Of a stretch of DNA of 64,000 nucleotides, positions 1,742 through 45,441 are shown piece after piece. The translations under genes and the position numbers were made by a program. Numbering within the stretch: position 1 is the stretch's first letter; each line of letters starts with the position of its first letter. The notes under the pieces were generated by a model. The model searched no databases. It was not told the origin of the DNA and was given only the letters and a program-made list of their open reading frames with translations. Origin of the DNA: an uncultured Collinsella sp. (lineage in GTDB: Bacteria > Actinomycetota > Coriobacteriia > Coriobacteriales > Coriobacteriaceae); NCBI GenBank assembly GCA_902496115.1, contig CABUZK010000007.1, forward strand, positions 2,256 to 66,255, written 5' to 3'.

Positions 1742-4726
1742 ATGGGCAACGCCATGCATCAATACGCCCTCTTTGGGACCGCACAATTTAAATACGATCA
1801 GACGATCACACATATATCGGACCAACACCGACAAATCGTCATTTGCAACAACGGTTCAGACGTACGCTACGCAACGCTAGAAGAGTGGGAAGAAGCTGGC
1901 GCTTTGTTCGATGAACGAGCACAAATCGAGGGCATCGTCACCAGCGCGAGCCCAGCACGCGATAAACTCGAGCTCTTTCGCAGTCTCTTTACCGGGCGCA
2001 AAGATGTTTACGCTCATGGATATCGCAGAAAGGACGGGGGCATTGGCTATACGCCTGCTTGTGCTAATGAGTGGGAGCCAGGAATTTGCCCCAAAGCAGC
2101 CCATCAAAGAGTTAAATGTGTAGAATGCAGCAATCGCGTCTTCCCGGAATTAAGCGATGCCGCAATCATTGCTCACTTTAAAGGCAACGATGACCGGTTC
2201 CGCGATGTCCTCGGGCAATATGTTCTCGATAGGAACTGCAACACGAAAGTTCTCGTCATCGATTTTGACAAAGCGGACTGGAAAGAGGCAACAAATGCCG
2301 TACGGCTTGTTGCAATACGACGGGGCATTAACGCCGCCGTTGAGCGCTCAAGGTCCGGCAACGGCGCCCACATCTGGTTTTTCTTCCTCGAGCCAATCAG
2401 CGCAAAGGCTGCCCGAGAGTTTGGAAGTTGCCTCATAACCGAAGCTGCGGCGCATAATAAGACAATCACGTTCGAGGCCTTTGATCGAATGCTACCCGCT
2501 CAGGCCACTATTCCCGATGGAGGCTTCGGAAACCTCATCGCACTCCCCTTTCAAGGCAAGGCGCAACGTGAAGGAAACAGTGTATTTGTAGACGAACAAT
2601 TCAAGCCCTTTCCCGACCAATGGCTCTATCTATCACAAGTCCAGCTGATTCCGCGCTCGACGGTGCAAGATCTGATTGAGGCCCCTGGAAACAACCCACA
2701 CGGAACAGCAACAACTACGGTGGCAAACAAGGGCAAACGGTATGCCCAAAGACCACGAAAGCGACTACCACTCACATCGCGGGACTTTCCCTCATCGCTG
2801 CCCGTTATTCAAGCCGATATGCTGTACATCCCCGAGAAGTCTCTGAGTCCAGCAGCTCAAATGGAAATCCGCGGACTTGCGACATTTGCCAATCCGGCAT
2901 TCTATCGCGCGCAGTCCATGCATCAATCAGTATTCGGCAAACCGCGACTCATAGACCTTAGCGAACTGAGAGATGGTCATGTTGCAATTCCCCGGGGCTG
3001 CAAAACTCAACTTGAGCGGCTAGTTCAAGAGACCGGCGTTACCGCCCACTATTCAGACGAGCGCAAATCGGGCAATCCGATTGTTATGGCATTTAAAGGA
3101 GTCCTTCGCCCTGAGCAGCAAATCGCCGCTGATCAGATGCTCATATACGAAGACGGAATCATGTCCGCGCCGACAGGCTTCGGTAAAACAGTCGTCGGAG
3201 CTTATCTTATTGCATCCATTGGTCTTCCAACGCTCGTCATCGTTCCCAAAACCGCACTCATAACCCAATGGAAATCCCAGCTCGAGCGATTTATCGACAT
3301 TACGGACAACAGGGAGCCCGTCCGAACCCCAAAAGGACGAATCAGCAAAAGGCAGCCTCCGGTCATCGGACAAATAGGAGGAGGCAAAATGGCCGTAAGC
3401 GGCCTCGTCGACATCGCTTCGTTCCAGTCGTTATCTGGCAAAGACCGTCAAACCGGAGAGCCGATAGTTAAGGGCCTTGTTCGTAATTACGGCCTCATTA
3501 TCTGCGACGAATGCCACCATGCCGCCGCACCACAGCTCGAGCTTATTCTCAAGTCCGCCCCGGCCAAATACGTATACGGCCTTTCTGCGACGCCCGAACG
3601 ATCCGACGGCCTTACGCGGGCGCTCTCCATGCTCTGCGGCCCGCTCCGTTATGTTATCGATCCAAAAGCGCAAGCGATTCAGCAGGGCATCCAGCGCATC
3701 GTACGGCCTCGTTTTACTGGAATTCGACTACCCGCCTACGAGCCAGGTGCAAGCTTCAATCAGATTCTCGACCTGCCGTGCACGCATGCAGCTAGAAACG
3801 AATTGATTGTCAACGACGCTATTGAAGCTGCGTCAAACGGCCGGCATCCGCTCGTGCTGACTAAAAGGAAAAAGCATGCCGAGGAGCTGTTCGGGATGCT
3901 CAAAAACCAAGGACACGAACCCGTTCTCCTGACCGGGGAAATCGACGCCAAAGAAAGAAAAACGATACTGAGCAGTCTTCCCCGCTTCGAGCATGAACAT
4001 CGAATCATCGTCGCCACCGAAAGCCTTTTGGGCGAGGGCTTCGATCTGTCCTACCTTGACACTCTACTCATTGCCACGCCGATATCGTGGGACGGCAGCA
4101 TCACGCAGCAGGCAGGCAGGCTCCATAGAAGCCACGAGGGCAAGCGACGGGTTGAGATATTCGACTACGTTGATTTATCTATACCCATGCTCGCCCGCAT
4201 GTACCAGAAGAGACTCAAGACCTACGCCAAGCTCGGGTACGAAGTCTACGTGACCGGAGGCAGCGAGCAGTCCGATCAAAACATTCTCATAGAACCGGCT
4301 AATGCCGTAGAGACTCTGGTTGAAGACATCGTTGGCGCCGCTAAGAGCATCTTCATTGCCGCGCCCTACGCATCCGCCGCCTGCCTCGCAAAGCTCGGCG
4401 ATGCAATCAAAGGTGCCACTGCCCGAGGGATTGCTCTTGAGTTTTTCATTGCCTCGACTCCGCGCGAAGATGCAAGCGAGACTTTGGCAAAAATGAACGT
4501 CGAGCATGCCATTAGAGCAGAAGGACGTTTGTGTGCAGCGATAATTGACGAAGAAACTATCTGGTACGGAACGATCCCGCTACTAGCTTTCCCCAAGAAA
4601 GAAGACTGCAGCATCAGGTTCAAAAACAGCGAGATCGCAGCGGAGCTCTTAGACGAAATCAACCACAAGGGAAAGCCAGATGCCACGTCAACAGGCAGGA
4701 CATCCCCACCACTTGCGGTGGAATAG
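1742..4726 (+). CDS. AEP-type primase-polymerase domain fused to an SF2 DEAH-box helicase with a C-terminal PLD-like-looking domain (single-protein conflict-system candidate)
   Basis: 994-aa ORF. AEP motifs are VLVIDFDKADW (DxD, nt 2261-2269) and SRSGNGAHIWFFF (nt 2354-2371). Helicase motifs are Walker A APTGFGKT (nt 3167-3190), DECH (nt 3506-3517), SATPER and QQAGRLHR. The stop codon lies inside repeat B. Confidence 0.85.
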   Translation: MGNAMHQYALFGTAQFKYDQTITHISDQHRQIVICNNGSDVRYATLEEWEEAGALFDERAQIEGIVTSASPARDKLELFRSLFTGRKDVYAHGYRRKDGGIGYTPACANEWEPGICPKAAHQRVKCVECSNRVFPELSDAAIIAHFKGNDDRFRDVLGQYVLDRNCNTKVLVIDFDKADWKEATNAVRLVAIRRGINAAVERSRSGNGAHIWFFFLEPISAKAAREFGSCLITEAAAHNKTITFEAFDRMLPAQATIPDGGFGNLIALPFQGKAQREGNSVFVDEQFKPFPDQWLYLSQVQLIPRSTVQDLIEAPGNNPHGTATTTVANKGKRYAQRPRKRLPLTSRDFPSSLPVIQADMLYIPEKSLSPAAQMEIRGLATFANPAFYRAQSMHQSVFGKPRLIDLSELRDGHVAIPRGCKTQLERLVQETGVTAHYSDERKSGNPIVMAFKGVLRPEQQIAADQMLIYEDGIMSAPTGFGKTVVGAYLIASIGLPTLVIVPKTALITQWKSQLERFIDITDNREPVRTPKGRISKRQPPVIGQIGGGKMAVSGLVDIASFQSLSGKDRQTGEPIVKGLVRNYGLIICDECHHAAAPQLELILKSAPAKYVYGLSATPERSDGLTRALSMLCGPLRYVIDPKAQAIQQGIQRIVRPRFTGIRLPAYEPGASFNQILDLPCTHAARNELIVNDAIEAASNGRHPLVLTKRKKHAEELFGMLKNQGHEPVLLTGEIDAKERKTILSSLPRFEHEHRIIVATESLLGEGFDLSYLDTLLIATPISWDGSITQQAGRLHRSHEGKRRVEIFDYVDLSIPMLARMYQKRLKTYAKLGYEVYVTGGSEQSDQNILIEPANAVETLVEDIVGAAKSIFIAAPYASAACLAKLGDAIKGATARGIALEFFIASTPREDASETLAKMNVEHAIRAEGRLCAAIIDEETIWYGTIPLLAFPKKEDCSIRFKNSEIAAELLDEINHKGKPDATSTGRTSPPLAVE

Positions 4727-4778
4727 GGACTGTTTTTGGCTTATCAGCCGCAAATCAATCCCTATTCCACCGCAACTT
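4708..4778 (+). repeat. Gene-terminal hairpin element, copy B (direct repeat of copy A)
   Basis: The first 30 nt are identical to 1144-1173 and the last 24 nt have 1 mismatch. The loop has diverged. It contains the last 6 codons and the stop of the helicase gene. Confidence 0.8.
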
Positions 4779-5514: not shown

Positions 5515-6273
5515 CTACATCAGCCCGCTCAGGGAGATGTCGACGGCCTCGTTGAGGTCGTCGGTAATGTGCACCAGCTCCGGATCGAGCGGGCTAATCA
5601 TACCGGCGTCCATCACCGGACCGTTAAGCCAGTCGAATAGGCCCTGCCAGTACTCGGTGCCCACCAGCACGAGCGGCATGCGCTTGACCTTGTGTGTCTG
5701 CACCAGCGTGAGCACCTCGAACATTTCGTCGAGCGTACCAAAACCTCCGGGAAACACGATGGCGCCCGAGCTGTATTTGACGAACATGGTCTTGCGCACA
5801 AAGAAGTAACGGAAGTCCATGCCGAGGTTCACGTATTTATTGAGCCCATGCTCGTGCGGCAATTCAATGCCCAGGCCAACTGACTTGCCGTTGACACTCG
5901 CCGCTCCCCTGTTGGCCGCTTCCATGATGCCGGGGCCGCCACCGGTGATGACCGCCACGCCGCGCTGGGCGATTTTGCGGCCGACCGTGCGCGCCGCCTT
6001 ATAGAGCGGATCGGTCTTGGGCGTGCGGGCGCTGCCGAAGATGGTCACAGCGGGCCCGAGCTCGGCAAGTGCGCCAAAGCCATCGACAAACTCGGCCTGG
6101 ATGCGCAGCACGCGCCAGGGGTCGGTGTGCAACCAGTCGGTCGAGTCCTCGGGCGCCAGCAGGTTGGCGTAGGTGTTGTCCTTTGGAATCATGGGGCCGC
6201 GCATGACCACGGGACCGCGTCGGTACGTCTCGTCGTAGGCAGGCTCGCCCTCGATATTCTCGTTCTTAATCAT
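5515..6273 (-). CDS. LOG family / TIGR00730 Rossmann-fold protein (nucleotide 5'-monophosphate nucleosidase-like)
   Basis: ATG at 6273 with GGAG upstream. Motifs GGGPGIMEAANRGA and PGGFGTLDE. Confidence 0.8.
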   Translation of the reverse strand: MIKNENIEGEPAYDETYRRGPVVMRGPMIPKDNTYANLLAPEDSTDWLHTDPWRVLRIQAEFVDGFGALAELGPAVTIFGSARTPKTDPLYKAARTVGRKIAQRGVAVITGGGPGIMEAANRGAASVNGKSVGLGIELPHEHGLNKYVNLGMDFRYFFVRKTMFVKYSSGAIVFPGGFGTLDEMFEVLTLVQTHKVKRMPLVLVGTEYWQGLFDWLNGPVMDAGMISPLDPELVHITDDLNEAVDISLSGLM

Positions 6274-6486
6274 GGGTACTCCTATCGAGAAAAAGAAAAA
6301 CGGGCGGGGTCGACGCCATGCGTCAAACACCCGCCCGAACATCAACTATTCGATATGGTACCCACGATGCATCAAGTGCTTGCAAGCTATCGGTCATCGG
6401 TCTCGCAGACGGTGTTAGCGAACGTGACGACCGGCCAGCGCTCGCCCCTTGCCGTTGCTAGCGCTCTGCAAGCGCCCGCGCCGCTC

Positions 6487-7626
6487 TTAGTAGTCCACCG
6501 CCGCAGGACTGTTCATCCAGTCGCTCACAAACGCGCCGTAGCGGCCCTCGATAATGGCCTGACGGGCACGCTGCATAAGGTTGAGCAGGTAGTAGATGTT
6601 GTGCATCGACAGCAGAATACCGCCGAGCATCTCCTTCTGCGTGACCATGTGACGGATGAGCGCACGGCTGTAGCCGCCCGTGCACACCGGGCAGGTGCAG
6701 GTGGGGTCGATAGGGCCGTCGTCGTGCGCAAAGCGCGCGTTGCGGAAGTTAAGGCGACCTTCACTGGAGAACGCCGTACCCATGCGGCCGGTGCGCGTCG
6801 GCAGCACGCAGTCGAACATGTCGATACCCACGCCCACGCCGCGCACGAGCGTGGTAGGGTTGCCGACGCCCATGAGGTAGCGCGGCTTGTGCTTAGGCAT
6901 GTACTCGGAAACCAGCGGTGCCAGCGTCTCGAACATGGTCTCGTGGTCCTCGCCCACCGAATAGCCGCCGATGCCGTAACCCGGGAAGTCGCCGCACTCC
7001 TCCAGATGGCGCAGCGAGCGCAGGCGCAGATCCAGGTGCATGCCGCCCTGAACGATGCCAAAGAGCGCCTGGTCATCGCGGGTATGCGCCTTATAGCAGC
7101 GCTCGGCCCACATACTCGACAGCTCAACGGCGCGCTCGACGTAGGCGCGCGTGGCGGGATAGCCCGGGCACTGGTCGAGCTGCATGCAGATATCGGAGCC
7201 GAGCTTCATGGCGATTTCCATGTTGTCCTCGGGCGTCCAGAACACGTGGCGGCCGTCGTAGTCATTGACGATAAAGCGCACGCCCTCGTCGGTGAGCTTG
7301 ACGGCGTCGTTGTGGCTGAACACCTGGAAGCCGCCCGAATCGGTAAGAATGGGGCCGTGCCAGTTCATAAACTTGTGCAGGCCGCCCAGCTCGGCAATGG
7401 TGTCCTCGCCGGGACGCATGGACAGGTGATAGGTGTTGGCAAGCACGATCTGGGCGCCGAGCTGTTTGACGGTCTCGGTAGGAATACCCTTGACGTTTGC
7501 CTTGGTGCCCACGGGCATAAAGATTGGCGTCTCGATATCGCCGTGCGGGGTGTGCAGTACGCCGGCACGCGCGTGCGTCGTCGGGTCCTCGGCGATCAGG
7601 TCGAATTTAAAAAGGCTCTGGTCCAT
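6487..7626 (-). CDS. tgt: tRNA-guanine (queuine) transglycosylase
   Basis: 379 aa with FMPVGTKANVKG, LTDSGGFQVFS and a Zn-site CxCxxC...H region. AAGGAG RBS. Confidence 0.95.
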   Translation of the reverse strand: MDQSLFKFDLIAEDPTTHARAGVLHTPHGDIETPIFMPVGTKANVKGIPTETVKQLGAQIVLANTYHLSMRPGEDTIAELGGLHKFMNWHGPILTDSGGFQVFSHNDAVKLTDEGVRFIVNDYDGRHVFWTPEDNMEIAMKLGSDICMQLDQCPGYPATRAYVERAVELSSMWAERCYKAHTRDDQALFGIVQGGMHLDLRLRSLRHLEECGDFPGYGIGGYSVGEDHETMFETLAPLVSEYMPKHKPRYLMGVGNPTTLVRGVGVGIDMFDCVLPTRTGRMGTAFSSEGRLNFRNARFAHDDGPIDPTCTCPVCTGGYSRALIRHMVTQKEMLGGILLSMHNIYYLLNLMQRARQAIIEGRYGAFVSDWMNSPAAVDY

Positions 7627-7756
7627 AAACTGGAACTCCTTGGTTGCGGTTCATACGCAAACCATTATACGGGCAACCCGCAAGGAGCACCGACTCGACA
7701 GAAACTGGCGCAAAGGGGGCAGCAAACGAGCGTGGATTTTCGGACGCCCATCTCAT

Positions 7757-7820
7757 GAGAGTGGATAATCTCCCACTTTTGCCCGAAACACAGACCAAAA
7801 ACGGGAGATTATCCACTCTC
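7757..7820. repeat. 18-bp perfect stem / 28-nt loop hairpin (distant relative of the A/B/C hairpins)
   Basis: GAGAGTGGATAATCTCCC (7757-7774) / GGGAGATTATCCACTCTC (7803-7820). It creates the artefactual mirror ORFs 7607..7837 and 7644..7841. Confidence 0.7.
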
Positions 7821-7874
7821 GTTCGGCGGGTACTCATTTAAGTACGTCCCCAATGAGTGGAGCTATTTACCAGC

Positions 7875-8049
7875 CACGCCAACGCCGATGTTTTGGGAAT
7901 GTCAGCGAGCGGTCGCCAGGGCGAACAAATTGGCATGAAAAGAGGACGGCATAGACCTTCTGGTCATGCCGCCCTCTTTGAATGACAAGTTGTCGCCCTG
8001 GCGACCGCGCAGCGTCGGCCCGTTACGGCGTTTGGCAAAACGCCGTAAC
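7875..8049. repeat. Structured ~175-nt element, copy 1 (candidate ncRNA / 3'-UTR element)
   Basis: Conserved blocks CACGCCAACGCC.ATGTTT, GTCAGCGA, GGCAT.GACCTTCTGGTCATGCC and GCAGCGTCG are shared with 11136-11307. A 16-bp perfect stem pairs 7909-7924 with 7993-8008. The terminal hairpin 8022-8049 abuts the stop of the SDR gene. Confidence 0.7.
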
Positions 8050-8051
8050 TC

Positions 8052-8852
8052 CTACGGACGCTGGCCCATGCCACCCTCGAGGGTGACAGTCTCGCCGTTC
8101 ATGTACTTAAAGTCGGGACCGCAGAGCTGAACGACCACGCGGCCGATTTCCTTCTCGACATCGCCATAGTGGCCCGCCGGCGGCATATGGACGTTGGCCT
8201 TGAACGCCTCGGGATAGGCATCCTGGAAGTTCTCGAGCGCAGCGGTCCAAGCAAGCGGGCACACGATGTTGACGTTGATGCCGTCCTTGCCCCACTCGTT
8301 GGCGGCAACGCGGGTCAAGCCGCGGATGCCCTCCTTGGCGGCGGCATAGCTGCACTGGCCGTAGTTGCCAAACAGGCCGGCGCCCGAAGCAAAGTTGACC
8401 ACGGAGCCCTTGGTCTCCTTCAGGTGCGGATAGGCCTTCTGCATGTACAGATAGGTGGCATACAGACCGGAATAAATGGCCAGGTTAAACTGATCCATGG
8501 TGTGGTCGGCGATGGTCACGCCCGAGGCGCTGGCCTGAGCATTGTTGACGACGGCGTCGATGCGGCCGAACTCCTCAATGGCCTTGTCGATGACGTTCTG
8601 AACAACGGCCTCGTTGTCCTGACCAGCCGAGACATCGGCCTGAACAGGCAGAACCTTGACGCCGTACTCGGCCTCGAGGGACTCCTTGGCAGCCTCGAGT
8701 TTGGCAACGTTGCGACCGGTAATGACGAGGTTTGCGCCCTCCTTGGCAAAAGCGATATCGATGCCGTAACCGATGGAGCCAGCGGAGCCGTCCTTAAGCG
8801 TGGCCTTGCCGCCGCCGGTGACGATCACGGTCTTACCAGTGAAAAGTCCCAT
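8052..8852 (-). CDS. SDR-family oxidoreductase (short-chain dehydrogenase)
   Basis: 266 aa with the TGGG..G.IG Rossmann motif, NNAQ, and the S...YxxxK catalytic pattern (SYAAAK). Confidence 0.85.
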   Translation of the reverse strand: MGLFTGKTVIVTGGGKATLKDGSAGSIGYGIDIAFAKEGANLVITGRNVAKLEAAKESLEAEYGVKVLPVQADVSAGQDNEAVVQNVIDKAIEEFGRIDAVVNNAQASASGVTIADHTMDQFNLAIYSGLYATYLYMQKAYPHLKETKGSVVNFASGAGLFGNYGQCSYAAAKEGIRGLTRVAANEWGKDGINVNIVCPLAWTAALENFQDAYPEAFKANVHMPPAGHYGDVEKEIGRVVVQLCGPDFKYMNGETVTLEGGMGQRP

Positions 8853-9140
8853 ACAAAGTCCTTTCGAATCGCGACGGGCACGCCCGCCGACTGCGCGTAT
8901 CCAACTTCACGCGCCAAAAGCTGAAATGCAACTTTAGCGGGTTCAAGTGAAAAATAAAGACCGCACCAGGCGAACGGCGCAACGTCATTCGGCGAAGGGA
9001 ATGTCAAGCGTAAACTGAATTTAGAGGACGAATTTTTGCTATCCAAGCGAGTCATCGAACACGTTTTGAAACTTTGCTGCGGGGCGCGGGATGTCGGCGC
9101 GAGACTTTATCATAGGGTGACAAACAACGATGAGGAGCAC

Positions 9141-10910
9141 ATGCCTATGACAGACGAGCTGGACCCCCAGACTCAACAGCATATTGATGATTCAGCAGAC
9201 GTCGCCGCAGATACTGACGCTGCGACCTGCAATGATACCGACGTCGACGACGCCACTCTGGATAACGGCGCTGCGACGGAAATCCCTACGGCCGAAGATG
9301 CCGGCGAGCAAAACGACGATTCGGCCGCTCAGGACGACGCCCCCGAAAAGGACGCCGCCCCGCAAGCAGAAGGCCCTATCGAGGTGTCTTCGGAAGAAGA
9401 GCTCGATGCCGTCATGGACTCCATGATGGATGCCGTCAAAGCGATGAAAAACGCCGTGGCCGACGCCGATATTGACGCCGAAGAAGAGGAGGCCGCCGAG
9501 GCCGCCTCGACCTTCGTGCCCGGCGAGACCCCCGTTGCCGACCAGGGCAGCACCCTGCCCTCGTTCCTGCAGCTTGAGCACCCCACCATTGGTGCCGATG
9601 CAGTCGACCCGCACGCTGCCGGCTTTTCCGTAGTCGAGGGCGGCACCGGCAGCATCGTCACGCCGCAGACGCCCGATGCGGGCACGGCGAACGCCGCTCA
9701 CCCGATCGCCCTGCACACCCCAGCAGCCAGCCGCGATCTGGGAGGCGCCGTCTCAAACACCGCCAGCGCCGTGGGCGCCTTTATCGCCCAGGGCGCCTCG
9801 GCCATGCGCGAGATGAACGCCGCAAAGAAGGCACTCGCGGACGCCCGTGCCCACCTGGCCGAACTTGAGCAGCGCATCGCCGATCAAGGCGAGGAACTCG
9901 AGACGCGTCAGGATATCGCAGGCCGCTACGACCAAATCGTCGCCGAGCAGCGCCAGACTATCGACACGGCACAAAAGGCCGCCGCGGCGGCAGAAATCGG
10001 CCGCGATACCCATGCTGCCAAGGCAACAGAGCTCAAGGCGCAGCTCGAGCAAATAAAAGAAGAGGACGATGCCACCGAGCGGCGTCTCAAAGCCGCACTC
10101 GATGCCGTGGAGGCGCGCGAAGCCAGCTCGCGCGAGACCGGTAACCGCCTCGTTCGCCGCCTCGAGGATTCCAAGCGCATCCGCGACAAGGTGCAGGCCG
10201 AGCGCGACGCCGGCGTTGCCGCAGCGCAGCAAACCGTCGATGCCACGCGCGCTCAACTCGAAACGCTGCGCCGCGAGTATGCCGAGCTGCAGCGCAATCC
10301 TTCGGCGAATCCCGCCAATTACACGGTGCGCACCAGCGAGCTTTCGATGCAGATCTCCGACACGGCCGATGCCCTGCGCAAAGCCGAGGAAGATGTCCCG
10401 CACATCACCGCCGATCTTGAGCACTCACTCGCGGCCGCCGAGCACGCCGTCGAGCAGGCACAAGCCCCCATCGCCGACGCCAGGCGTGCCCATCAGGCCG
10501 TGACGGCCGAGGCCGATGCCGCGCGCGACGAGCTGCAGACCGCAAAAGCCGCCGCCGCAACGCGCCAACGCGAACTGCGCGAGAAGATCGCCGTCGAGGA
10601 CATGGCGCGTCGAGAGCAGGAGCAGGCTATTGCCAATGCCCAGGCGGATGTAGCGCATGCGCAGTCGATCATCGAGCAGGCGACCGAGGTGCACGACCAT
10701 CCCGAGATTACCGAATCGCTCGCAGGCTCCTTGGCCCGCGATAAGGCCGAGCACGCCGAAACCGAGCGCGAAGTGGCTCAACTCGAAGCCGCCGAGGACG
10801 ACGTGCGCGAGCGTACCCGCGACTCACGCATCAAATTCACCGGAGCCATCGTCTGCATCATCGCCGTAATCCTCGTGATCGTCCTGATCGGGCTCTTCGC
10901 GAGCAAGTAA
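9141..10910 (+). CDS. Acidic N-terminus / long Ala-Glu-rich coiled-coil protein with a C-terminal transmembrane anchor
   Basis: ATG at 9141 after GAGGAG. ~590 aa of low-complexity coiled-coil ending in IVCIIAVILVIVLIGLFASK. Confidence 0.65.
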   Translation: MPMTDELDPQTQQHIDDSADVAADTDAATCNDTDVDDATLDNGAATEIPTAEDAGEQNDDSAAQDDAPEKDAAPQAEGPIEVSSEEELDAVMDSMMDAVKAMKNAVADADIDAEEEEAAEAASTFVPGETPVADQGSTLPSFLQLEHPTIGADAVDPHAAGFSVVEGGTGSIVTPQTPDAGTANAAHPIALHTPAASRDLGGAVSNTASAVGAFIAQGASAMREMNAAKKALADARAHLAELEQRIADQGEELETRQDIAGRYDQIVAEQRQTIDTAQKAAAAAEIGRDTHAAKATELKAQLEQIKEEDDATERRLKAALDAVEAREASSRETGNRLVRRLEDSKRIRDKVQAERDAGVAAAQQTVDATRAQLETLRREYAELQRNPSANPANYTVRTSELSMQISDTADALRKAEEDVPHITADLEHSLAAAEHAVEQAQAPIADARRAHQAVTAEADAARDELQTAKAAAATRQRELREKIAVEDMARREQEQAIANAQADVAHAQSIIEQATEVHDHPEITESLAGSLARDKAEHAETEREVAQLEAAEDDVRERTRDSRIKFTGAIVCIIAVILVIVLIGLFASK

Positions 10911-10936
10911 ACTAGCTGCCAAAAAACACTCAAGGC

Positions 10937-11008
10937 AGTTGCGGTGAGATAGTTCCTGTTTAGCCATCAAAAAGGCCAATTCAAGAACTATCTCACCGCA
11001 ACTTTTTT
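10937..11008 (+). terminator. Gene-terminal hairpin element, copy C, with a T-tract
   Basis: AGTTGCGGTGAGATAGTTC...GAACTATCTCACCGCAACTTTTTT. Same architecture and loop motif (GGCC.A.TCA) as copies A/B, but the stem sequence covaries. Confidence 0.75.
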
Positions 11009-11135
11009 ATTGGTGCAAAGGGGTCAGGCTACTTTGCACCAACTTGGTGTATATAGACCAGTCCCCATTGCACCAACAACGTTTGCCCAGATAAAACCCG
11101 CCAAAATAAACCTGTCCCTTTTTGGCAGGTTGAAT

Positions 11136-11307
11136 CACGGCAACGCCAATGTTTAGGCGAAGTCAGCGAAAACGCCCCTAAGCGAGCAAGGTGACGTGAA
11201 AGAGGAGGGCATTGACCTTCTGGTCATGCCCGACGATTGAACGTCAGATTGCCGCTTAGGGGCGTTTGCAGCGTCGAGCAGTTACGCGGTTCGTAGAACC
11301 GCGTAAC
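11136..11307. repeat. Structured ~175-nt element, copy 2
   Basis: Same conserved blocks as 7875-8049. A 15-bp perfect stem pairs 11170-11184 with 11253-11267, with an unrelated sequence at the same position. The terminal hairpin 11281-11307 overlaps the queA stop codon. Confidence 0.7.
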
Positions 11308-12524
11308 TAACAAATGAGCATGGCGTCGCCAAAGCTGAAGAAGCGGTAGCGCTCCTCGATAGCGGCAGCGTAGGCATCCATGATCTGGTCGCGGGAGGCA
11401 AGCGCGCTGACGAGCATCATGAGCGTAGAGCGCGGCACGTGGAAGTTGGTGATCAGCGCGTCGACCACGTGATAGGTCGAGCCGGGCATGAGGTAGAGCT
11501 GCGTTGTCGCGTTCTCACGCACCACGATGTCACCGCGGCCGAGCGTGTCGGCCCCGTCCTCGCGGCCTTCAAAATAGCGCGCCGTCACGGCCGGATCGGA
11601 CACCGGTGCCTCAGCGTCAAACGCGCTCTCGAGCGAGCGCACTGCGGTGGTGCCGACGGCGATCACGCGGTGCCCCTCGGCCTTCGCCTTATGCACGGCG
11701 TCGACAACCTCCTGCGACACGTGGTAGCGCTCGGTGTGCATGACGTGCTGTGTAGGGTCGTCCTCCTCCACCAAGCGGAAGGTATCAATGCCCACCTCGA
11801 GCTCGACAGCGGCAAACTTCGCACCCTTGGCCTCGATAGCGGCCATGAGCTCGGGAGTAAAGTGCAGGCCCGCCGTGGGAGCAGCAGCCGAGTGCTCCTC
11901 CTTCATGGCGTAGACGGTCTGGTACTTCTCGGGATCGCCCTCGTAATCGGTAATGTAGGGCGGCAGCGGAACGTGGCCGGCAGCATGGATGGCCTCGTCG
12001 AGCGTGCGCGGGTCGCCGGCGGCATTGCACCCGGCCGGCTCAAAGCGCACCAGGCGGCCACCGCGGCTATCGGTGACAAAGTCGACAACCTCGGCTGTCA
12101 GCACCACGGGAGCCCCCTCGGGCGCATGGGCGCCACCGGCGCGATACTCAATCTGAGCACCGGGCTTCAGACGCTTGCCCGGCTTGACCAGGCACTCCCA
12201 AACGTGACCCAGCGGGTCAACATCTTCGCGGCGCTTGAGCAGCAGCGTCTCGACCACGCCACCCGAGCCGGCTTTGCGACCGATCAGGCGGGCCGGCATC
12301 ACGCGCGTCTTGTTGATGACGAGCACATCGCCTGGCTCGATATAGTCGATGATATCGCGGAAGATACGGTGCTCAACGGTACCGCCGTGCTCCAGCGGCG
12401 TTCCCGCCTGGGAGCCCTTGCGATCCACCACCAGCAGACGGCAGGAGTCACGCGGCTCGGCAGGCGCCTGGGCGATCAGTTCCTCAGGAAGGTTGTAGTC
12501 AAAATCATCGGTACGCATAGACAC
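11307..12524 (-). CDS. queA: S-adenosylmethionine:tRNA ribosyltransferase-isomerase
   Basis: 405 aa. DDFDYNLPEELIAQAPAEPRDSCRLLVV is the QueA N-terminus. GTG start at 12524 lies 8 nt after AAGGAG. Confidence 0.93.
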   Translation of the reverse strand: MSMRTDDFDYNLPEELIAQAPAEPRDSCRLLVVDRKGSQAGTPLEHGGTVEHRIFRDIIDYIEPGDVLVINKTRVMPARLIGRKAGSGGVVETLLLKRREDVDPLGHVWECLVKPGKRLKPGAQIEYRAGGAHAPEGAPVVLTAEVVDFVTDSRGGRLVRFEPAGCNAAGDPRTLDEAIHAAGHVPLPPYITDYEGDPEKYQTVYAMKEEHSAAAPTAGLHFTPELMAAIEAKGAKFAAVELEVGIDTFRLVEEDDPTQHVMHTERYHVSQEVVDAVHKAKAEGHRVIAVGTTAVRSLESAFDAEAPVSDPAVTARYFEGREDGADTLGRGDIVVRENATTQLYLMPGSTYHVVDALITNFHVPRSTLMMLVSALASRDQIMDAYAAAIEERYRFFSFGDAMLIC

Positions 12525-12588
12525 GTCGGATACTCCTTATATAGCTAAAGTCCGCTCTACATCCTAGCAGGCTGACGTCCCAAGTGAA

Positions 12589-13164
12589 CTACTTTTTGGA
12601 CGCTTTGCGCTCGTCGCGGATGCGGGCTCGATCCATGGCCGCCTCGACGGCCGAGAATCGGCAGCCGCAATAATTCTGCCGATACATGCCCAGCTCGCGC
12701 GAACGACGCGTGGCCTCGGGGTAATACGGGCGAAAATCGCGAATCACCGGAGTGAGACCGCGGGCGGCAGCCAGACGCTCCAACACATCATTGCAGGTTT
12801 CGAACAACTGATACGGCGAGACGGCGAGCGTCGTGCCCACAAACTCAAACCCACGCTCCTGAGCCACACGGCATGCCTCGGCCAGACGCAGGGCATAGCA
12901 CGCGCGACAGCGACGGGGTCGATCGGCGCCCAGCGGGGCCACGCCGACCTCCCAGCGCTCGCGGTCCTCCCCCGCCTCGATGAGCTCGATGTCGCCATCG
13001 GCACACCACCGGCGCAGCTCGTCCAAGCGCCGCTGCCATTCATCGTGAGGCTGAATATTAGGGTTTGTCCAGCAGATTGTGGGTTCAAACCCCTCCTCGC
13101 GCAGCAGACGAACCGGCTCAAGCGAGCACGGCGCACAGCAAGCGTGCAACAACAACGGCTTCAT
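12589..13164 (-). CDS. queH: Epoxyqueuosine reductase QueH (DUF208)
   Basis: MKPLLLHACCAPCS..., CRACYALRL and YCGCRF Cys motifs are typical of QueH. The start is ambiguous (13164/13170/13182). 13164 gives the best spacing from GGAGAGGAG. Confidence 0.8.
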   Translation of the reverse strand: MKPLLLHACCAPCSLEPVRLLREEGFEPTICWTNPNIQPHDEWQRRLDELRRWCADGDIELIEAGEDRERWEVGVAPLGADRPRRCRACYALRLAEACRVAQERGFEFVGTTLAVSPYQLFETCNDVLERLAAARGLTPVIRDFRPYYPEATRRSRELGMYRQNYCGCRFSAVEAAMDRARIRDERKASKK

Positions 13165-13184
13165 GGACATCTCCTCTCCCACAA

Positions 13185-35588: not shown

Positions 35589-35678
35589 CCTCCTTGAGCG
35601 AAGAAATCAAACGGTAACAGTGTATCGCTTCGGCGCAAAAAGGGCGAAACCACGGCACCTCGGAACCCCCTCGGAACC

Positions 35679-35915
35679 CCTGTGGTCAAAAAATGCCAAA
35701 TATGAGTACTGTCACCAATTTAGTAGCAGCAAATTTCCTTGTAATGAGTGCTGAAGATCACTATTTGTCCAAAAGCGAGACAGCGTTATTCCCCATAGGT
35801 TCAATAAAATGGGTTTCCTAACGAGAATGAATATCGTTAGGAAACCCAAAAGACGTAAAACATATGTGACTATCATGGCAACAGTACTCATATTTGGCGC
35901 TTTTTGACCACGTGG
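35679..35915. mobile_element. MITE-like element, copy 2
   Basis: GGTCAAAAAATGCCAAATATGAGTACTGT (35684-35712) versus the reverse complement of 35881-35909 shows 2 mismatches in 29. The TIR and first ~35 internal nt are homologous to copy 1, and the rest differs. It contains an internal 14-bp hairpin GGGTTTCCTAACGA/TCGTTAGGAAACCC. Confidence 0.7.
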
Positions 35916-35948
35916 TATATGGCTAACCCCTCAAACAGCCCAAAACGC

Positions 35949-37444: not shown

Positions 37445-37815
37445 GCACCTTCAAGTCATTTAGATCGGTCGGGCGGCAACCGCCGGCCAACCGCATCGAT
37501 CAAGTAATGGTGCTAAGTCTAGCCCATAAGCACATGAGCGTCAGCGCATCCGGCCATCGCGGATTTCTATGACACACGATAGGCGTCGGCACCGCAAACA
37601 TGGGACACATGGCCCACCTTTCGAGACTCCCGAGCAGCACAAGCTGGGGCATATCTATAAGTAAGGAACCCGTTGGGGAACGGCCGCGCAACGGCCACAA
37701 GCGATGAACGGAGGCATAAGTCGCACAGTACACAGAGACATCCGCCGCCAGCGCAATCAGTACCCCAACAGCATGCGGCGCCGTGATGTCATCAGCAGAC
37801 AAGGAGGACGCCACC

Positions 37816-38415
37816 ATGATGAAAAAGACCCTATCAATCCTTTCCCTTTGCATCGCCCTCTTTGCCGCGCTCGCCCTTGTGGGCTGCGGCGGGAGCGCAT
37901 CGGGCGGCGGCAGCGCCCCCAAGAGCGAGAGCAAGGAAAAGGCCCCCGTCGCCAAGAAGACAGACTACATCTGGTTTAAGGTCGAGATGCCCGAGGGCGT
38001 CGGCGTAAGCGACTCTGCCGGCAAGAATGCCGACAGGGTCCAGCTCACCTTCCCCGAAGACGAGAACGCCTCGGCCGATCGCTTTATCCCCGTTTGGAAA
38101 AAAGCGCTGACGGCCGAGGAATCCCACGCCGACCAGGCGGAAAAGAAGGGGGATACGTTCCAGTGGAAGGATGGCGGGTCCGTCGAGTATAACGGCAGGA
38201 CGTGGCTCGTCGGAACATACGAGGACAACAGCGGCATCTCAACCATGCTTTTTACCGATGTTGAGCCGGGAAGCGTCTACGTCCTCATCTCGAACTTCGA
38301 CCAGCACAAGAAAGAAGCCGAGGCACTCCTCAACTCCATCGAGTTCCCCGATGACATGGAAGAGGCAGTTTCCGGGGCACGCGAAGTCGAGATTTCGAGC
38401 ATCGAGATCAAGTAA
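37816..38415 (+). CDS. Lipoprotein (paralog 1)
   Basis: ATG after AAGGAGG. Signal plus lipobox MMKKTLSILSLCIALFAALALVGC. Confidence 0.8.
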   Translation: MMKKTLSILSLCIALFAALALVGCGGSASGGGSAPKSESKEKAPVAKKTDYIWFKVEMPEGVGVSDSAGKNADRVQLTFPEDENASADRFIPVWKKALTAEESHADQAEKKGDTFQWKDGGSVEYNGRTWLVGTYEDNSGISTMLFTDVEPGSVYVLISNFDQHKKEAEALLNSIEFPDDMEEAVSGAREVEISSIEIK

Positions 38416-38656
38416 CGGGACACCCGCACGCGCCTACGCGCACCCGCGCACATGCGCCCCATTAAAACAACGGGCGCCCAACCCGGGGAGGGCCGACAGC
38501 ACCAGCCCTCCCCTCTTTTGCGCCCGAACATATTGCCACTTAACGGCGCAAATCCGGCCCTCAGAATGGGACACATGGCCCACCCTAGCGAGCCGTCCAC
38601 GCGTACAGTAAAGACAGGTAATCCATGGGCGGTTACAGATCGAGGAGGACACGACC

Positions 38657-39250
38657 ATGAAAAAGAAGGCCTTTGCGATTCTCACCCTCTGCATCAGTCT
38701 CTTTGCCGCAGTTGCCCTGGTGGGCTGCGGTGGCAGCGGCGACGCTACCGGAAGTGGCGGTGGCGGCGGCGCAGAAAAGCCAGCCGTGGATATGAGGACC
38801 GACTTCATTTGGTTTAAGGTCGAGGTCCCCGAGGGCGTCGAGATCACCGACGTCGCAGGCGACACTGCCGACAGGGCCCAGTTTAAGTTCACCGAGAGCG
38901 AGCACGCCAGCGATCGCTTCATCCCCGTCTTCGACTCTGACAAGAACGCCGACGAGCTGTTCGACTACGAGGCAAAGTGGAATGCCAGCTTTGAGTGGAC
39001 CGAGAATGACCCCGTCAAGTACAACGGCAAGACCTGGCGCAACGCTTCCTACACGCACTCGGGCGGCGTGACGACCGAGTACTTCACCGACGTTGACGGC
39101 GGCAGCGTGTACGTGCGCATCGACAACGTCGAGGAACACAAGGATGCCGTCGAGACCATGATGAAGTCCCTGGAATTTGCCGACGACATTGCCGAGGCCA
39201 AGACCGAGGCCATGGACGTCATGCTCGATGATATCGAGATCAAGCGTTAA
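38657..39250 (+). CDS. Lipoprotein (paralog 2)
   Basis: MKKKAFAILTLCISLFAAVALVGC. Shares DFIWFKVE.PEGV, DRFIPV and other blocks with paralog 1. Confidence 0.8.
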   Translation: MKKKAFAILTLCISLFAAVALVGCGGSGDATGSGGGGGAEKPAVDMRTDFIWFKVEVPEGVEITDVAGDTADRAQFKFTESEHASDRFIPVFDSDKNADELFDYEAKWNASFEWTENDPVKYNGKTWRNASYTHSGGVTTEYFTDVDGGSVYVRIDNVEEHKDAVETMMKSLEFADDIAEAKTEAMDVMLDDIEIKR

Positions 39251-44705: not shown

Positions 44706-45441
44706 AGGTTTGATTGCCCGTTAGATCGATACTGTTCCAAACCATGGGATGGGTAGGATGTCTCCCACCGCGTCCTGTGAGGTAAAATCTTGACTGCCGC
44801 GGAATCCGCCTGCGGGCAACGCTCCGATCTCCGATTGGGGTGAAGCCTATGAACTTGTTTCTTGAAATCCTGCGCCTCTCGATGTATGTGACCGGCATTG
44901 CCCGGAACCTCTACTCGATCTGGCGGGAATATAAGCAGTAACGGATAGCGAAGGGAGTCATGAAAAGGGCCGGTTGCAGCCGGCCCTTTAGACGATAATA
45001 CCTGCGTTGCCCGCGCTTCCGAAGTGTGACTAGCTGAGGAGCGGGTTCCGCGGCACAACCTGATTTTACCCAGCGAGGCGGATCTTTTGCAGCCGCTCCA
45101 CCGTTTATTTACATCTACCAACATCGGGATCTAAAACCAAAAGTTTGCGCCCCGAATGGACAGAAAGGAGCGAGATTACGGAGAAGAAGTTGGACAATCG
45201 AGGTTCGGCTTGGAGTCTACATAGCATATGCTAGGAAAATGATGGAGAGGGTCAGGGCACTGCGCGGCGTTGGGCTCACTATCCTGGAGATAACCGAGGC
45301 GCCAGATAGAGCGGCGACGCTTTTCGGGACATTTCCCAGACTTCTCGAGAGGCAATCGCTACCTCAACTCGGCATAAATAGTTCGCCCCGGGGGACAGCC
45401 GAAGAGCCCTTTTTACGGCCACCTTTCATGACGGACAAAAG

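Follow-up and report, generated by a model that had tools for sequence, protein, structure and literature searches.

Two hairpin-forming elements beside queuosine genes belong to an apparently undescribed repeat family in Collinsella gut bacteria

Two copies of a modular hairpin element

The window considered here is a stretch of 64,000 nucleotides (nt) from an uncultured Collinsella sp. (assembly GCA_902496115.1, contig CABUZK010000007.1, positions 2,256 to 66,255), in which queuosine genes are spread over positions 6487-13182 of the minus strand. There, queH (12589-13182) adjoins queA (11307-12524), and tgt (6487-7626) is parted from this pair by an SDR gene (8052-8852) and a plus-strand open reading frame (ORF) of 624 amino acids (aa) without a Pfam match. 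Two copies of an element of about 185 nt lie in this region, copy 1 at the end of the SDR gene and copy 2 at the end of queA, and both are members of an apparently undescribed, strongly hairpin-forming repeat family in Collinsella gut bacteria. A preliminary description of this DNA had reported the two copies; both are confirmed, with extents refined from nhmmer matches (7865-8058 and 11131-11316) to 7865-8051 for copy 1 and 11131-11308 for copy 2.

Each copy presents the same order of modules (Table 1), starting with a 5' module of the pattern ..CC-A-NGG-CAACGCC-GATGTTTTGG.. and continuing through a GTCAGCGA box, a hairpin of ~100 nt and the sequence GCAGCGTCG with a further 3-4 nt to a terminal hairpin of 12-13 bp; across the family the element spans 185-195 bp. 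The long hairpin is composed of a perfect outer stem of 15-16 bp, conserved imperfect inner arms and an apical mini-hairpin, GGCAT-N-GACC-TTCT-GGTC-ATGCC, and is flanked by conserved unpaired boxes, CAGCGA on the 5' side and GCAGCGTCG on the 3' side, while the CAGCG of the GTCAGCGA box recurs 3' of the hairpin. In a pairwise alignment of ~190 columns the two copies exhibit 82% mean column identity, and the ordered conserved blocks noted previously are evident. The long stems proposed earlier for the two copies are exact to the base, with 16 and 15 bp, respectively, and 100% complementarity.

Predicted folding energies of both copies, on both strands, lie at about -92 to -111 kcal/mol (z = -9.3 to -11.3 relative to shuffled sequence); the two large hairpins together with the weak fold of the 5' module itself total about -100 kcal/mol. 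The apex GGCAT-N-GACCTTCTGGTC-ATGCC is found twice in the window, compared with 0 expected from 100 shuffles. No ORF of 60 aa or longer is contained within the element, and the ORFs that overlap its edges all start outside it.

Table 1. Modules of the two element copies and the adjoining stop codons in the window (alignment A2, 90 distinct copies, is described in the following section)
Feature	Position	Strand	Remarks
Copy 1, 5' module (CCAGCCACGCCAACGCCGATGTTTTGGGAATG)	7865..7900	+	Left boundary approximate, taken from nhmmer start; conservation across 33 non-orthologous sites starts ~5-8 nt left of CAACGCC
Copy 1, GTCAGCGA box, directly 5' of long hairpin	7901..7908	+	Little or no variation in columns 40-45 of alignment A2 (90 copies)
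Copy 1, long hairpin, type A	7909..8008	+	Outer 16-bp stem 7909-7924/7993-8008, imperfect conserved inner arms, apex hairpin 7948-7970
Copy 1, linker GCAGCGTCG + 4 nt	8009..8021	+	Nearly invariant in alignment A2
Copy 1, terminal hairpin GTTACGGCGTTT-GGCA-AAACGCCGTAAC, 12 bp	8022..8049	+	Arms 8022-8033/8038-8049; family-wide variants covary
Stop TAG of SDR gene (8052-8852), 2 nt from terminal hairpin	8052..8054	-	
Copy 2, 5' module	11131..11161	+	Pairwise alignment, nhmmer
Copy 2, GTCAGCGA box	11162..11169	+	
Copy 2, long hairpin, type C	11170..11267	+	Outer 15-bp stem 11170-11184/11253-11267, apex hairpin 11208-11230
Copy 2, linker GCAGCGTCG + 3 nt	11268..11279	+	
Copy 2, terminal hairpin AGTTACGCGGTTC-GTA-GAACCGCGTAACT, 13 bp	11280..11308	+	Arms 11280-11292/11296-11308
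Stop TAG of queA (11307-12524), two bases inside terminal hairpin stem	11307..11309	-	

Family range, stem types and pairing

The element is a dispersed repeat rather than a two-copy RNA gene. Scanning one genome per GTDB species with the exact 22-base apex pattern yielded at least 120 loci, and all 80 titles among the matches listed belong to Collinsella, Coriobacteriaceae or unlabelled gut bins; because the apex served as search key and the matches are listed incompletely, both the conservation of the apex and the taxonomic range are biased by this procedure. A profile search of the collected locus DNA recovered 108 full-length copies, including copies with a diverged apex that the pattern had missed, and clustering by flanking gene resolves these into at least 33 distinct genomic sites. 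The element is present at 8 places in a 900-kb record of C. aerofaciens and at 2 in the 64-kb window, from which we estimate a copy number in the order of tens per genome. Of 80 metagenome contigs with queA, 15 terminate within the element, which is to be expected if a repeat disrupts assembly.

Comparison with known classes gave no counterpart. In Rfam 15 the element has no match at gathering score, in agreement with the preliminary description, which had recognised no Rfam family, and at E <=10 it draws only chance miRNA-like matches far below threshold; the only gathering-score match in the window is to Collinsella-1 (RF01700) at 44967-45160 on the minus strand (full-length, 167.7 bits, E = 4e-44), an RNA that marks the source genus as Collinsella. 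Nor was any known REP family, or any known MITE (miniature inverted-repeat transposable element) family with transposase-defined ends, matched, the alternative that the preliminary description had itself raised. The literature searched contained neither the apex sequence in a bacterial context nor a description of a Collinsella repeat, MITE or REP, and the first 200 of the 408 supplementary files of the structured-RNA catalogue of Fremin and Bhatt held no match. An origin in phage, plasmid or viral DNA was rejected: the apex and terminal-hairpin patterns have zero matches in viral contigs and phage genomes, and the sole plasmid match is the 900-kb C. aerofaciens replicon, which carries the orthologous SDR-tgt locus.

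This distribution also bears on the proximity to queuosine genes that the preliminary description had pointed out. The proximity is real, with tgt 239 nt to the left of copy 1 and queA and queH nearby, and both window copies could on this basis belong to a queuosine-specific cis-regulatory RNA, acting as leader or 3' untranslated region (3'UTR) of queA, tgt or queH. The same element, however, is found behind at least 33 unrelated genes or sites, including the signal recognition particle (SRP) RNA gene, copy 1 follows the SDR gene and not a queuosine gene, and the Rfam 15 scan revealed no match to preQ1 or any other riboswitch family. We therefore regard the association as coincidental and a queuosine-specific role as effectively refuted by the distribution, leaving it the smallest of chances.

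Within the family, the modules occur in distinct variants, namely at least three types of 5' module, at least five of the long hairpin and at least four of the terminal hairpin, which are combined independently; the terminal module is additionally found duplicated and solo. The left arms of the five long-hairpin types are GCGNNNNCCAGRGCGA (type A), AARCCCGCCAGAGCG (B), AAACGCCCCTAAGCG (C), GAAGCCAGCTGGYGA (D) and GCGGGTCGCATTTGA (E). Since the types are joined by intermediates, the two stem sequences of the window, previously considered unrelated, are instead two of at least five subfamily variants, and the stem appeared completely covarying because copy 1 carries type A and copy 2 type C. Across the family, 36 different left arms are observed, and the outer stem is mostly perfect or contains 1-2 mismatches; one mismatched stem, GCGACGTCC/GCGCCGCCC, recurs at 7 sites.

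Pairing was quantified in alignment A2, which comprises 90 distinct copies and 47 pairs. Standard pairs occupy 97.6% of the cells and both-side changes are seen in 29 of the 47 pairs; 0 of 500 shuffles reach any of the observed pairing measures, and controls with slid partners are 30-42% paired. Conservation of pairing is solid in the long hairpin, the apex and the terminal hairpin, the last of which covaries in its family-wide variants as had been noted for the two window copies. Thus, the covariation described earlier holds in the sense that pairing is kept through changes on both sides, but it does not represent stepwise RNA covariation between paralogues, as types A and C swap at single orthologous sites.

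The apex loop GACC-UUCU-GGUC, which serves as the search key, is nearly invariant in alignment A2. The loop had been called invariant, but four variants exist across the family: GATCTTTTGATC, GCGTAC-TTTG-GTACGC, a GGCGC/GCGCC stem and an inverted apex. Asymmetric internal loops, a bulge on one side and the unpaired boxes CAGCGA and GCAGCGTCG are common to all subfamilies, which speaks against a purely mechanical origin and suggests recognition by some factor at the DNA or RNA level.

Placement at gene 3' ends

Both window copies lie at the stop codons of minus-strand genes, as the preliminary description had observed, with the SDR stop 2 nt away from copy 1 and the queA stop overlapping the base of the terminal hairpin of copy 2. 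This arrangement extends across the family: at 25 of the 33 sites a minus-strand ORF (at least 80 aa) ends next to the terminal hairpin, its stop codon offset from the hairpin by -1 to +9 nt, where an offset of -1 denotes a stop codon overlapping the terminal stem, and at 4 further sites a second GCAGCGTCG-plus-hairpin module is interposed between element and stop codon. The 5' end behaves otherwise: at none of the 33 sites is a convergent ORF (stop-to-stop, at least 100 aa) seen to end 16 nt or less away from it. Since stop contact is made by the terminal-hairpin end and not by the 5' end, the element is polar relative to the preceding gene, and the genes to its left are arranged convergently at 16 sites and in tandem at 17.

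The adjacent stop codons are TAG in 19 and TAA in 6 of the 25 cases and never TGA, compared with a background usage in the same DNA of ~44% TAG, 36% TAA and 20% TGA; the chance of finding no TGA among 25 stops is ~0.004 (0.8^25). TAG is the commonest stop codon in Collinsella ORFs, ending 21 of 40 ORFs in the window and 279 of 634 (44%) across the loci, and the share of only ~20% for TGA is unusual for a genome of ~60% G+C. The protein-coding neighbours are unrelated housekeeping genes, encoding LysRS, RF1, the primary sigma factor RpoD, TyrRS, HtpG, a PfkB kinase and IleRS. In L005 and its orthologues, which make up one site, the SRP RNA gene takes the place of a protein-coding gene, and its 3' end directly adjoins the element; the association is therefore with transcript 3' ends and not with translation as such.

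Because there is no room for a terminator between the stop codon and the terminal hairpin, at least the terminal hairpin would be transcribed as part of the 3'UTR of the upstream gene, and, judging from its position, the whole element probably is as well. On this reading each copy, always facing the same way, occupies the 3' end of a transcription unit, with the terminal hairpin -1 to +9 nt from the stop or directly after the SRP RNA. By analogy with REP/BIME, ERIC and BOX repeats, the RNA hairpins would most likely form a barrier to 3'-to-5' exonucleases, and they may also, or instead, act as a factor-assisted termination or insulation signal that sets the transcript 3' end. The hairpins might in addition attenuate read-through, and a stem containing the stop codon could affect terminating ribosomes.

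A different RNA-based explanation is that the elements constitute a family of plus-strand small RNAs (sRNAs) or antisense RNAs that converge on gene 3' ends, with CCUUCU, the conserved pyrimidine-rich loop at the apex, pairing with purine-rich targets that resemble Shine-Dalgarno (SD) sequences. The near-invariant apex loop and the very stable fold would suit such RNAs, as would a slight plus-strand excess of G.U over A.C cells in the alignment (51 versus 32). However, this excess is lost when distinct events are counted (22 versus 19, and 18 versus 18 among rare ones), and the constancy of the apex derives in part from how the copies were found; moreover, one lineage has the apex inverted and others carry a different loop. 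To the left of the element, sequences differ from one site to the next. Neither a promoter-like site upstream nor a terminator-like site at the end is present, and the idea of the element having its own promoter was rejected, none being predicted. We consider an sRNA family very unlikely.

Palindrome maintenance, relation to known repeats and possible roles

The counts of mismatches bear on whether an RNA helix or a DNA palindrome is the conserved entity. Selection for a helix in one RNA strand would be expected to leave mismatches of a single kind, yet the event counts for plus-strand G.U and A.C mismatches are nearly symmetric, and the covariation therefore does not show RNA, rather than a DNA palindrome, to be what is conserved. 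The strand-specific tolerance of G.U over A.C that would be expected of a structured RNA was not found, and calling the RNA strand from these mismatches was abandoned, the symmetric counts being uninformative. The preliminary description had left the choice between a structured RNA and a structure-dependent DNA repeat; the element is indeed a multi-copy, structure-conserving repeat at gene 3' ends, but it carries no RNA-strand signal.

Several rearrangements are of the kind that DNA palindromes undergo. In one lineage (L075, L076 and L085) the 23-bp apex is reverse-complemented inside an otherwise normal copy, as strand switching in a palindrome would be expected to produce. Among orthologous copies, one arm sometimes differs at two bases at once, as in GCGACGTCC versus GCGCCGCCC at site 9, and such differences fit conversion from arm to arm or from copy to copy. 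Whole types are also exchanged at fixed positions: the SDR site has type A in the window and type B with the GATCTTTTGATC apex in L091, and sites 9, 14 and 18 have two to five stem variants each. At the queA site the element is present in 71 of 71 evaluable metagenome contigs, where, typed by the arm nearest the gene given that tandem copies occur, it belongs to type C in 30 (28 plus 2 one-base variants), type B in 22 and type E in 16; the two arms agree in type except in one contig, and the type is uncorrelated with the nucleotide identity of queA. Part of this variation could reflect assembly chimerism or recombination between strains.

Junctions within nested copies all map to the tip of the hairpin. 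In four independent cases a complete element, together with a foreign flank of 6-8 nt, has been fused to a resident element of which the right half is left. The breakpoint in the apex is identical in all of them, with the sequence ..G|GTCATGCC or ..G|GTCGCGCC (pattern ..G|GTC(A/G)(T/C)GCC), which suggests template switching at an extruded hairpin tip. In the nested copy of L182 the foreign flank is the queA flank itself, and nested or tandem copies that replace the resident left half are seen in L098, L131, L134, L149, L146 and L182. Taken together, the symmetric mismatches, the inverted apex, the tip junctions and the exchange of types point, at the level of the sequences compared here, to the DNA palindrome as the thing that is maintained.

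Conservation on the DNA level could also mean that a host protein binds the palindrome, for example gyrase, topoisomerase, a nucleoid-associated protein or a factor in replication or recombination. Cruciform-prone sequences where transcription units end would then manage supercoiling or form domain boundaries, a role that has been proposed for some BIMEs. This would be in keeping with a palindrome conserved on both strands without RNA-strand bias, with the unpaired boxes CAGCGA and GCAGCGTCG, with tip junctions taken as a sign of hairpin extrusion in vivo and with the location of copies behind highly expressed housekeeping genes. A topological role, however, needs neither strict orientation nor contact with the stop codon, and the binding protein is putative only, so that we give this explanation little credence.

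A stronger competitor is a purely selfish element akin to MITEs, REPINs or PATEs, which would be non-autonomous and without host function. It would be mobilised by a transposase whose gene lies at another place in the genome, for example an HUH/Y1 enzyme with a preference for imperfect DNA hairpins, and would target positions just 3' of stop codons or hairpin tips. Dispersed copies, distinct propagating subfamilies and the recurrence of the mismatched GCGACGTCC/GCGCCGCCC stem would all follow from such propagation, and the asymmetric internal loops and bulge common to all types resemble hairpins recognised by Y1 transposases. The CAGCG box before both hairpins, the precise junctions at apex and stop codons and the depletion of TGA beside the element (0 of 25 against ~20% background) are likewise as a targeting enzyme might leave them. 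A Y1 transposase also exists in Collinsella: L086 carries at 6109-6566 (+) the gene of an IS200-family member, with 54% identity over 146 aa to an IS200 TnpA sequence. It lies 650 nt from an element copy, but its flanking hairpins and ends are unrelated to the element, and we treat its presence as coincidence and not as the element's partner. In 1.2 Mb of locus DNA, tblastn with this IS200 TnpA sequence identified only this one ordinary IS200-like gene and no RAYT.

The ends and sites of the element agree less well with mobility. The element shares with MITEs its small size and lack of coding capacity, but a MITE with terminal inverted repeats was rejected, as the palindromes are internal and the 5' module (..GGCAACGCCGATGTTTTGG..) does not match the terminal hairpin in reverse complement. 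Target duplications that recur from site to site were not seen at the outer ends across the 33 sites. The long hairpin is flanked by a CAGCG direct repeat, yet its insertion into a CAGCG target was rejected since the 1.2 Mb of locus DNA contains no empty scaffold and the hairpin-only copies are truncated ones. No clean empty sites occur among the BLAST matches to flank pairs and gene ends; the three element-less alleles are complex replacements, each of which keeps the last 7-10 nt of the terminal hairpin. Presence in every evaluable contig at the queA site indicates a stable rather than recently mobile element, and no copies were found in phage, viral or true plasmid DNA. An integron attC site (RYYYAAC...GTTRRRY) was also rejected, the terminal hairpin GTTACGC...GCGTAAC having the opposite order with the core broken at its middle base, and the core housekeeping nature of the neighbouring genes was counted against a cassette site. 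On this evidence a purely selfish element is possible, though we think it unlikely.

Among known repeats, the closest likeness is to the REP and BIME sequences of E. coli and other Enterobacteria. These are extragenic palindromes that mostly lie just after stop codons in transcribed 3' regions, and they form mosaics of hairpin units and conserved linkers whose variants are freely combined, both of which apply to the Collinsella element; other repeat families are often found alongside as well. REP and BIME sequences stabilise upstream mRNA, attenuate read-through and stall terminating ribosomes if within ~15 nt of the stop codon. The REP unit differs in being ~35 nt long (20-40) with a GTAG head, in occurring in hundreds of copies and in its tie to RAYT transposases, whereas the Collinsella element comprises ~185 nt with hairpins of 100 and 28 nt, has CAGCG heads, occurs in tens of copies in an actinobacterial host and has no sequence similarity to REP. 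REPINs, the REP doublets of Pseudomonas and E. coli, share with it a long hairpin whose arms change together, long persistence at orthologous sites and subfamilies within a genome; a REPIN is, however, a symmetric inverted pair of REPs, whereas the Collinsella element is polar, with a 5' module, a separate terminal hairpin and a fixed orientation.

Other families are more distant. BOX of Streptococcus pneumoniae, ERIC/IRU of enterobacteria and bcr1 of the Bacillus cereus group are likewise intergenic, 100-200 bp long, non-coding and very stably folded by prediction, BOX being modular as well (boxA-boxB-boxC), and they are co-transcribed with their neighbours, which for the Collinsella element we infer from position; they belong to other phyla and share no sequence similarity. 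We know of no report that any of them meets stop codons with such regularity or swaps whole hairpin types at a single site. MIRUs of Mycobacterium, from the same phylum, are also actinobacterial intergenic repeats that touch or overlap the upstream stop codon in one orientation, but they consist of 40-100-bp direct tandem units inside operons, often with small ORFs, and not of long palindromes. Correia elements (CREE) of Neisseria and other MITEs resemble the family in their size of ~100-150 bp, their long hairpins when transcribed, their location near genes and their several subtypes, but have terminal inverted repeats and a TA target duplication, in contrast to the ends described above. What is most unusual about the Collinsella element is that it touches the stop codon almost exactly, that its hairpin types are interchangeable at fixed loci and that junctions fall at the hairpin tip.

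Further repeats accompany the element. A second family, a hairpin with a 25-bp stem (GAGAGTGGATAATCTCCC...GGGAGATTATCCACTCTC), is situated between copy 1 and tgt at 7757-7820 of the window, and a relative at ~5730-5795 of L044 occupies a site that holds the studied element in other genomes. A third palindromic repeat, GTAGTCGTTGGGGACGTTCTTAAACGACTAGTC..AAGAACGTCCCCAACGACTAC, often lies directly to the left of the element (L054, L070, L079, L086 at 7133-7190, L094, L102, L111 and others), and one arm of it alone is found at 7840-7853 of the window. An intergenic block, GTTTGCCCAGATAAAACC...AAATAAACCTGTCCCTTTTTGGCAGG, adjoins copy 2 at 11081-11128 and recurs beside copies at 6912-6958 of L086 and, in reverse, in the left flanks of L056 and L065. 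With several repeat families side by side, the intergenic regions are therefore mosaics of such families. Elsewhere, the window contains three copies of a ~70-nt hairpin repeat (..TTGCGGTG.ATAG....CTAT.TCACCGCAACTT) at 1144-1214, 4708-4778 and 10934-11004, the first two nearly identical, as well as a MITE-like element of ~230 bp at 1303-1533 and 35678-35916, whose copies are 80-88% identical and have ~35-bp perfect terminal inverted repeats (CCCGGTGGGCAAAAAATGGCAAATATGAGTACTGT ... reverse complement). Two tandem paralogous genes with lipoprotein-like signal peptides (..LSLCIALFAALALVGCGG..) lie at 37802-38908, with repeats that are 74-76% identical and 838-841 nt apart.

Weighing these observations, we favour, as on balance probable, a family of Collinsella-specific, modular, strongly palindromic interspersed repeats that resemble REP/BIME sequences, are transcribed as 3'UTRs and are spread and homogenised by palindrome processes at the DNA level. 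In these processes, whole hairpin types would be exchanged between copies by gene conversion or copy choice, one arm would be corrected against the other, and template switching would take place at the hairpin tip. A transposase acting in trans may also play a part.

Several points weigh against this reading. Co-transcription and any role at the RNA level are putative, being deduced from position. A terminator scan returned no site at the ends of the terminal or long hairpins on either strand, the sequence after the hairpins is not T-rich, and a canonical intrinsic terminator was rejected as no U-tract follows any hairpin on either strand. A copy number of tens is below that of classical REPs. 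The conserved internal loops and one-sided bulge suggest strand-specific protein recognition, which fits a transposase or RAYT equally, and the precise placement at stop codons is unexplained by a passive model of tolerated sites or by gene conversion alone. Furthermore, some of the type differences among metagenome contigs could be assembly chimeras at the repeat.

A more far-reaching possibility, which we hold to be distinctly unlikely, is that the family represents a new kind of hairpin element, which would be copied specifically to positions immediately behind stop codons or transcript ends and into hairpin tips already in place. Structure would guide the copying, either through template switching of replication at extruded hairpins or through a putative HUH-type enzyme of Actinomycetota, with the interchangeable stem types behaving as alleles. 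Alternatively, under the same heading, the stop-embedded hairpin and the apex (AGAAGG, SD-like, in the sense of the gene; CCUUCU, anti-SD-like, on the other strand) may tune translation termination or ribosome recycling for dozens of housekeeping genes.

The behaviour of the family also carries a caution for the analysis of structured RNAs, since 'perfect covariation' of two paralogous copies can stem from the exchange of DNA-palindrome subfamilies and not from RNA selection. Collinsella, a genus that abounds in the human gut and is heavily over-split, has its assemblies broken by the element. Dozens of housekeeping transcription units have the family at their 3' ends, with types that differ between strains at single loci, and in practice the element is a useful strain marker. 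The repeats would additionally offer a natural system in which to follow how palindromes are maintained, with correction of one arm by the other, inversion of the tip and template switching there. Were the family mobile, it would extend REP/REPIN-like biology into Actinomycetota, where we know of no documented case. If, on the other hand, its hairpins set the 3' ends or the stability of mRNAs, they would constitute a genus-wide layer of post-transcriptional control in a host with almost no molecular genetics.

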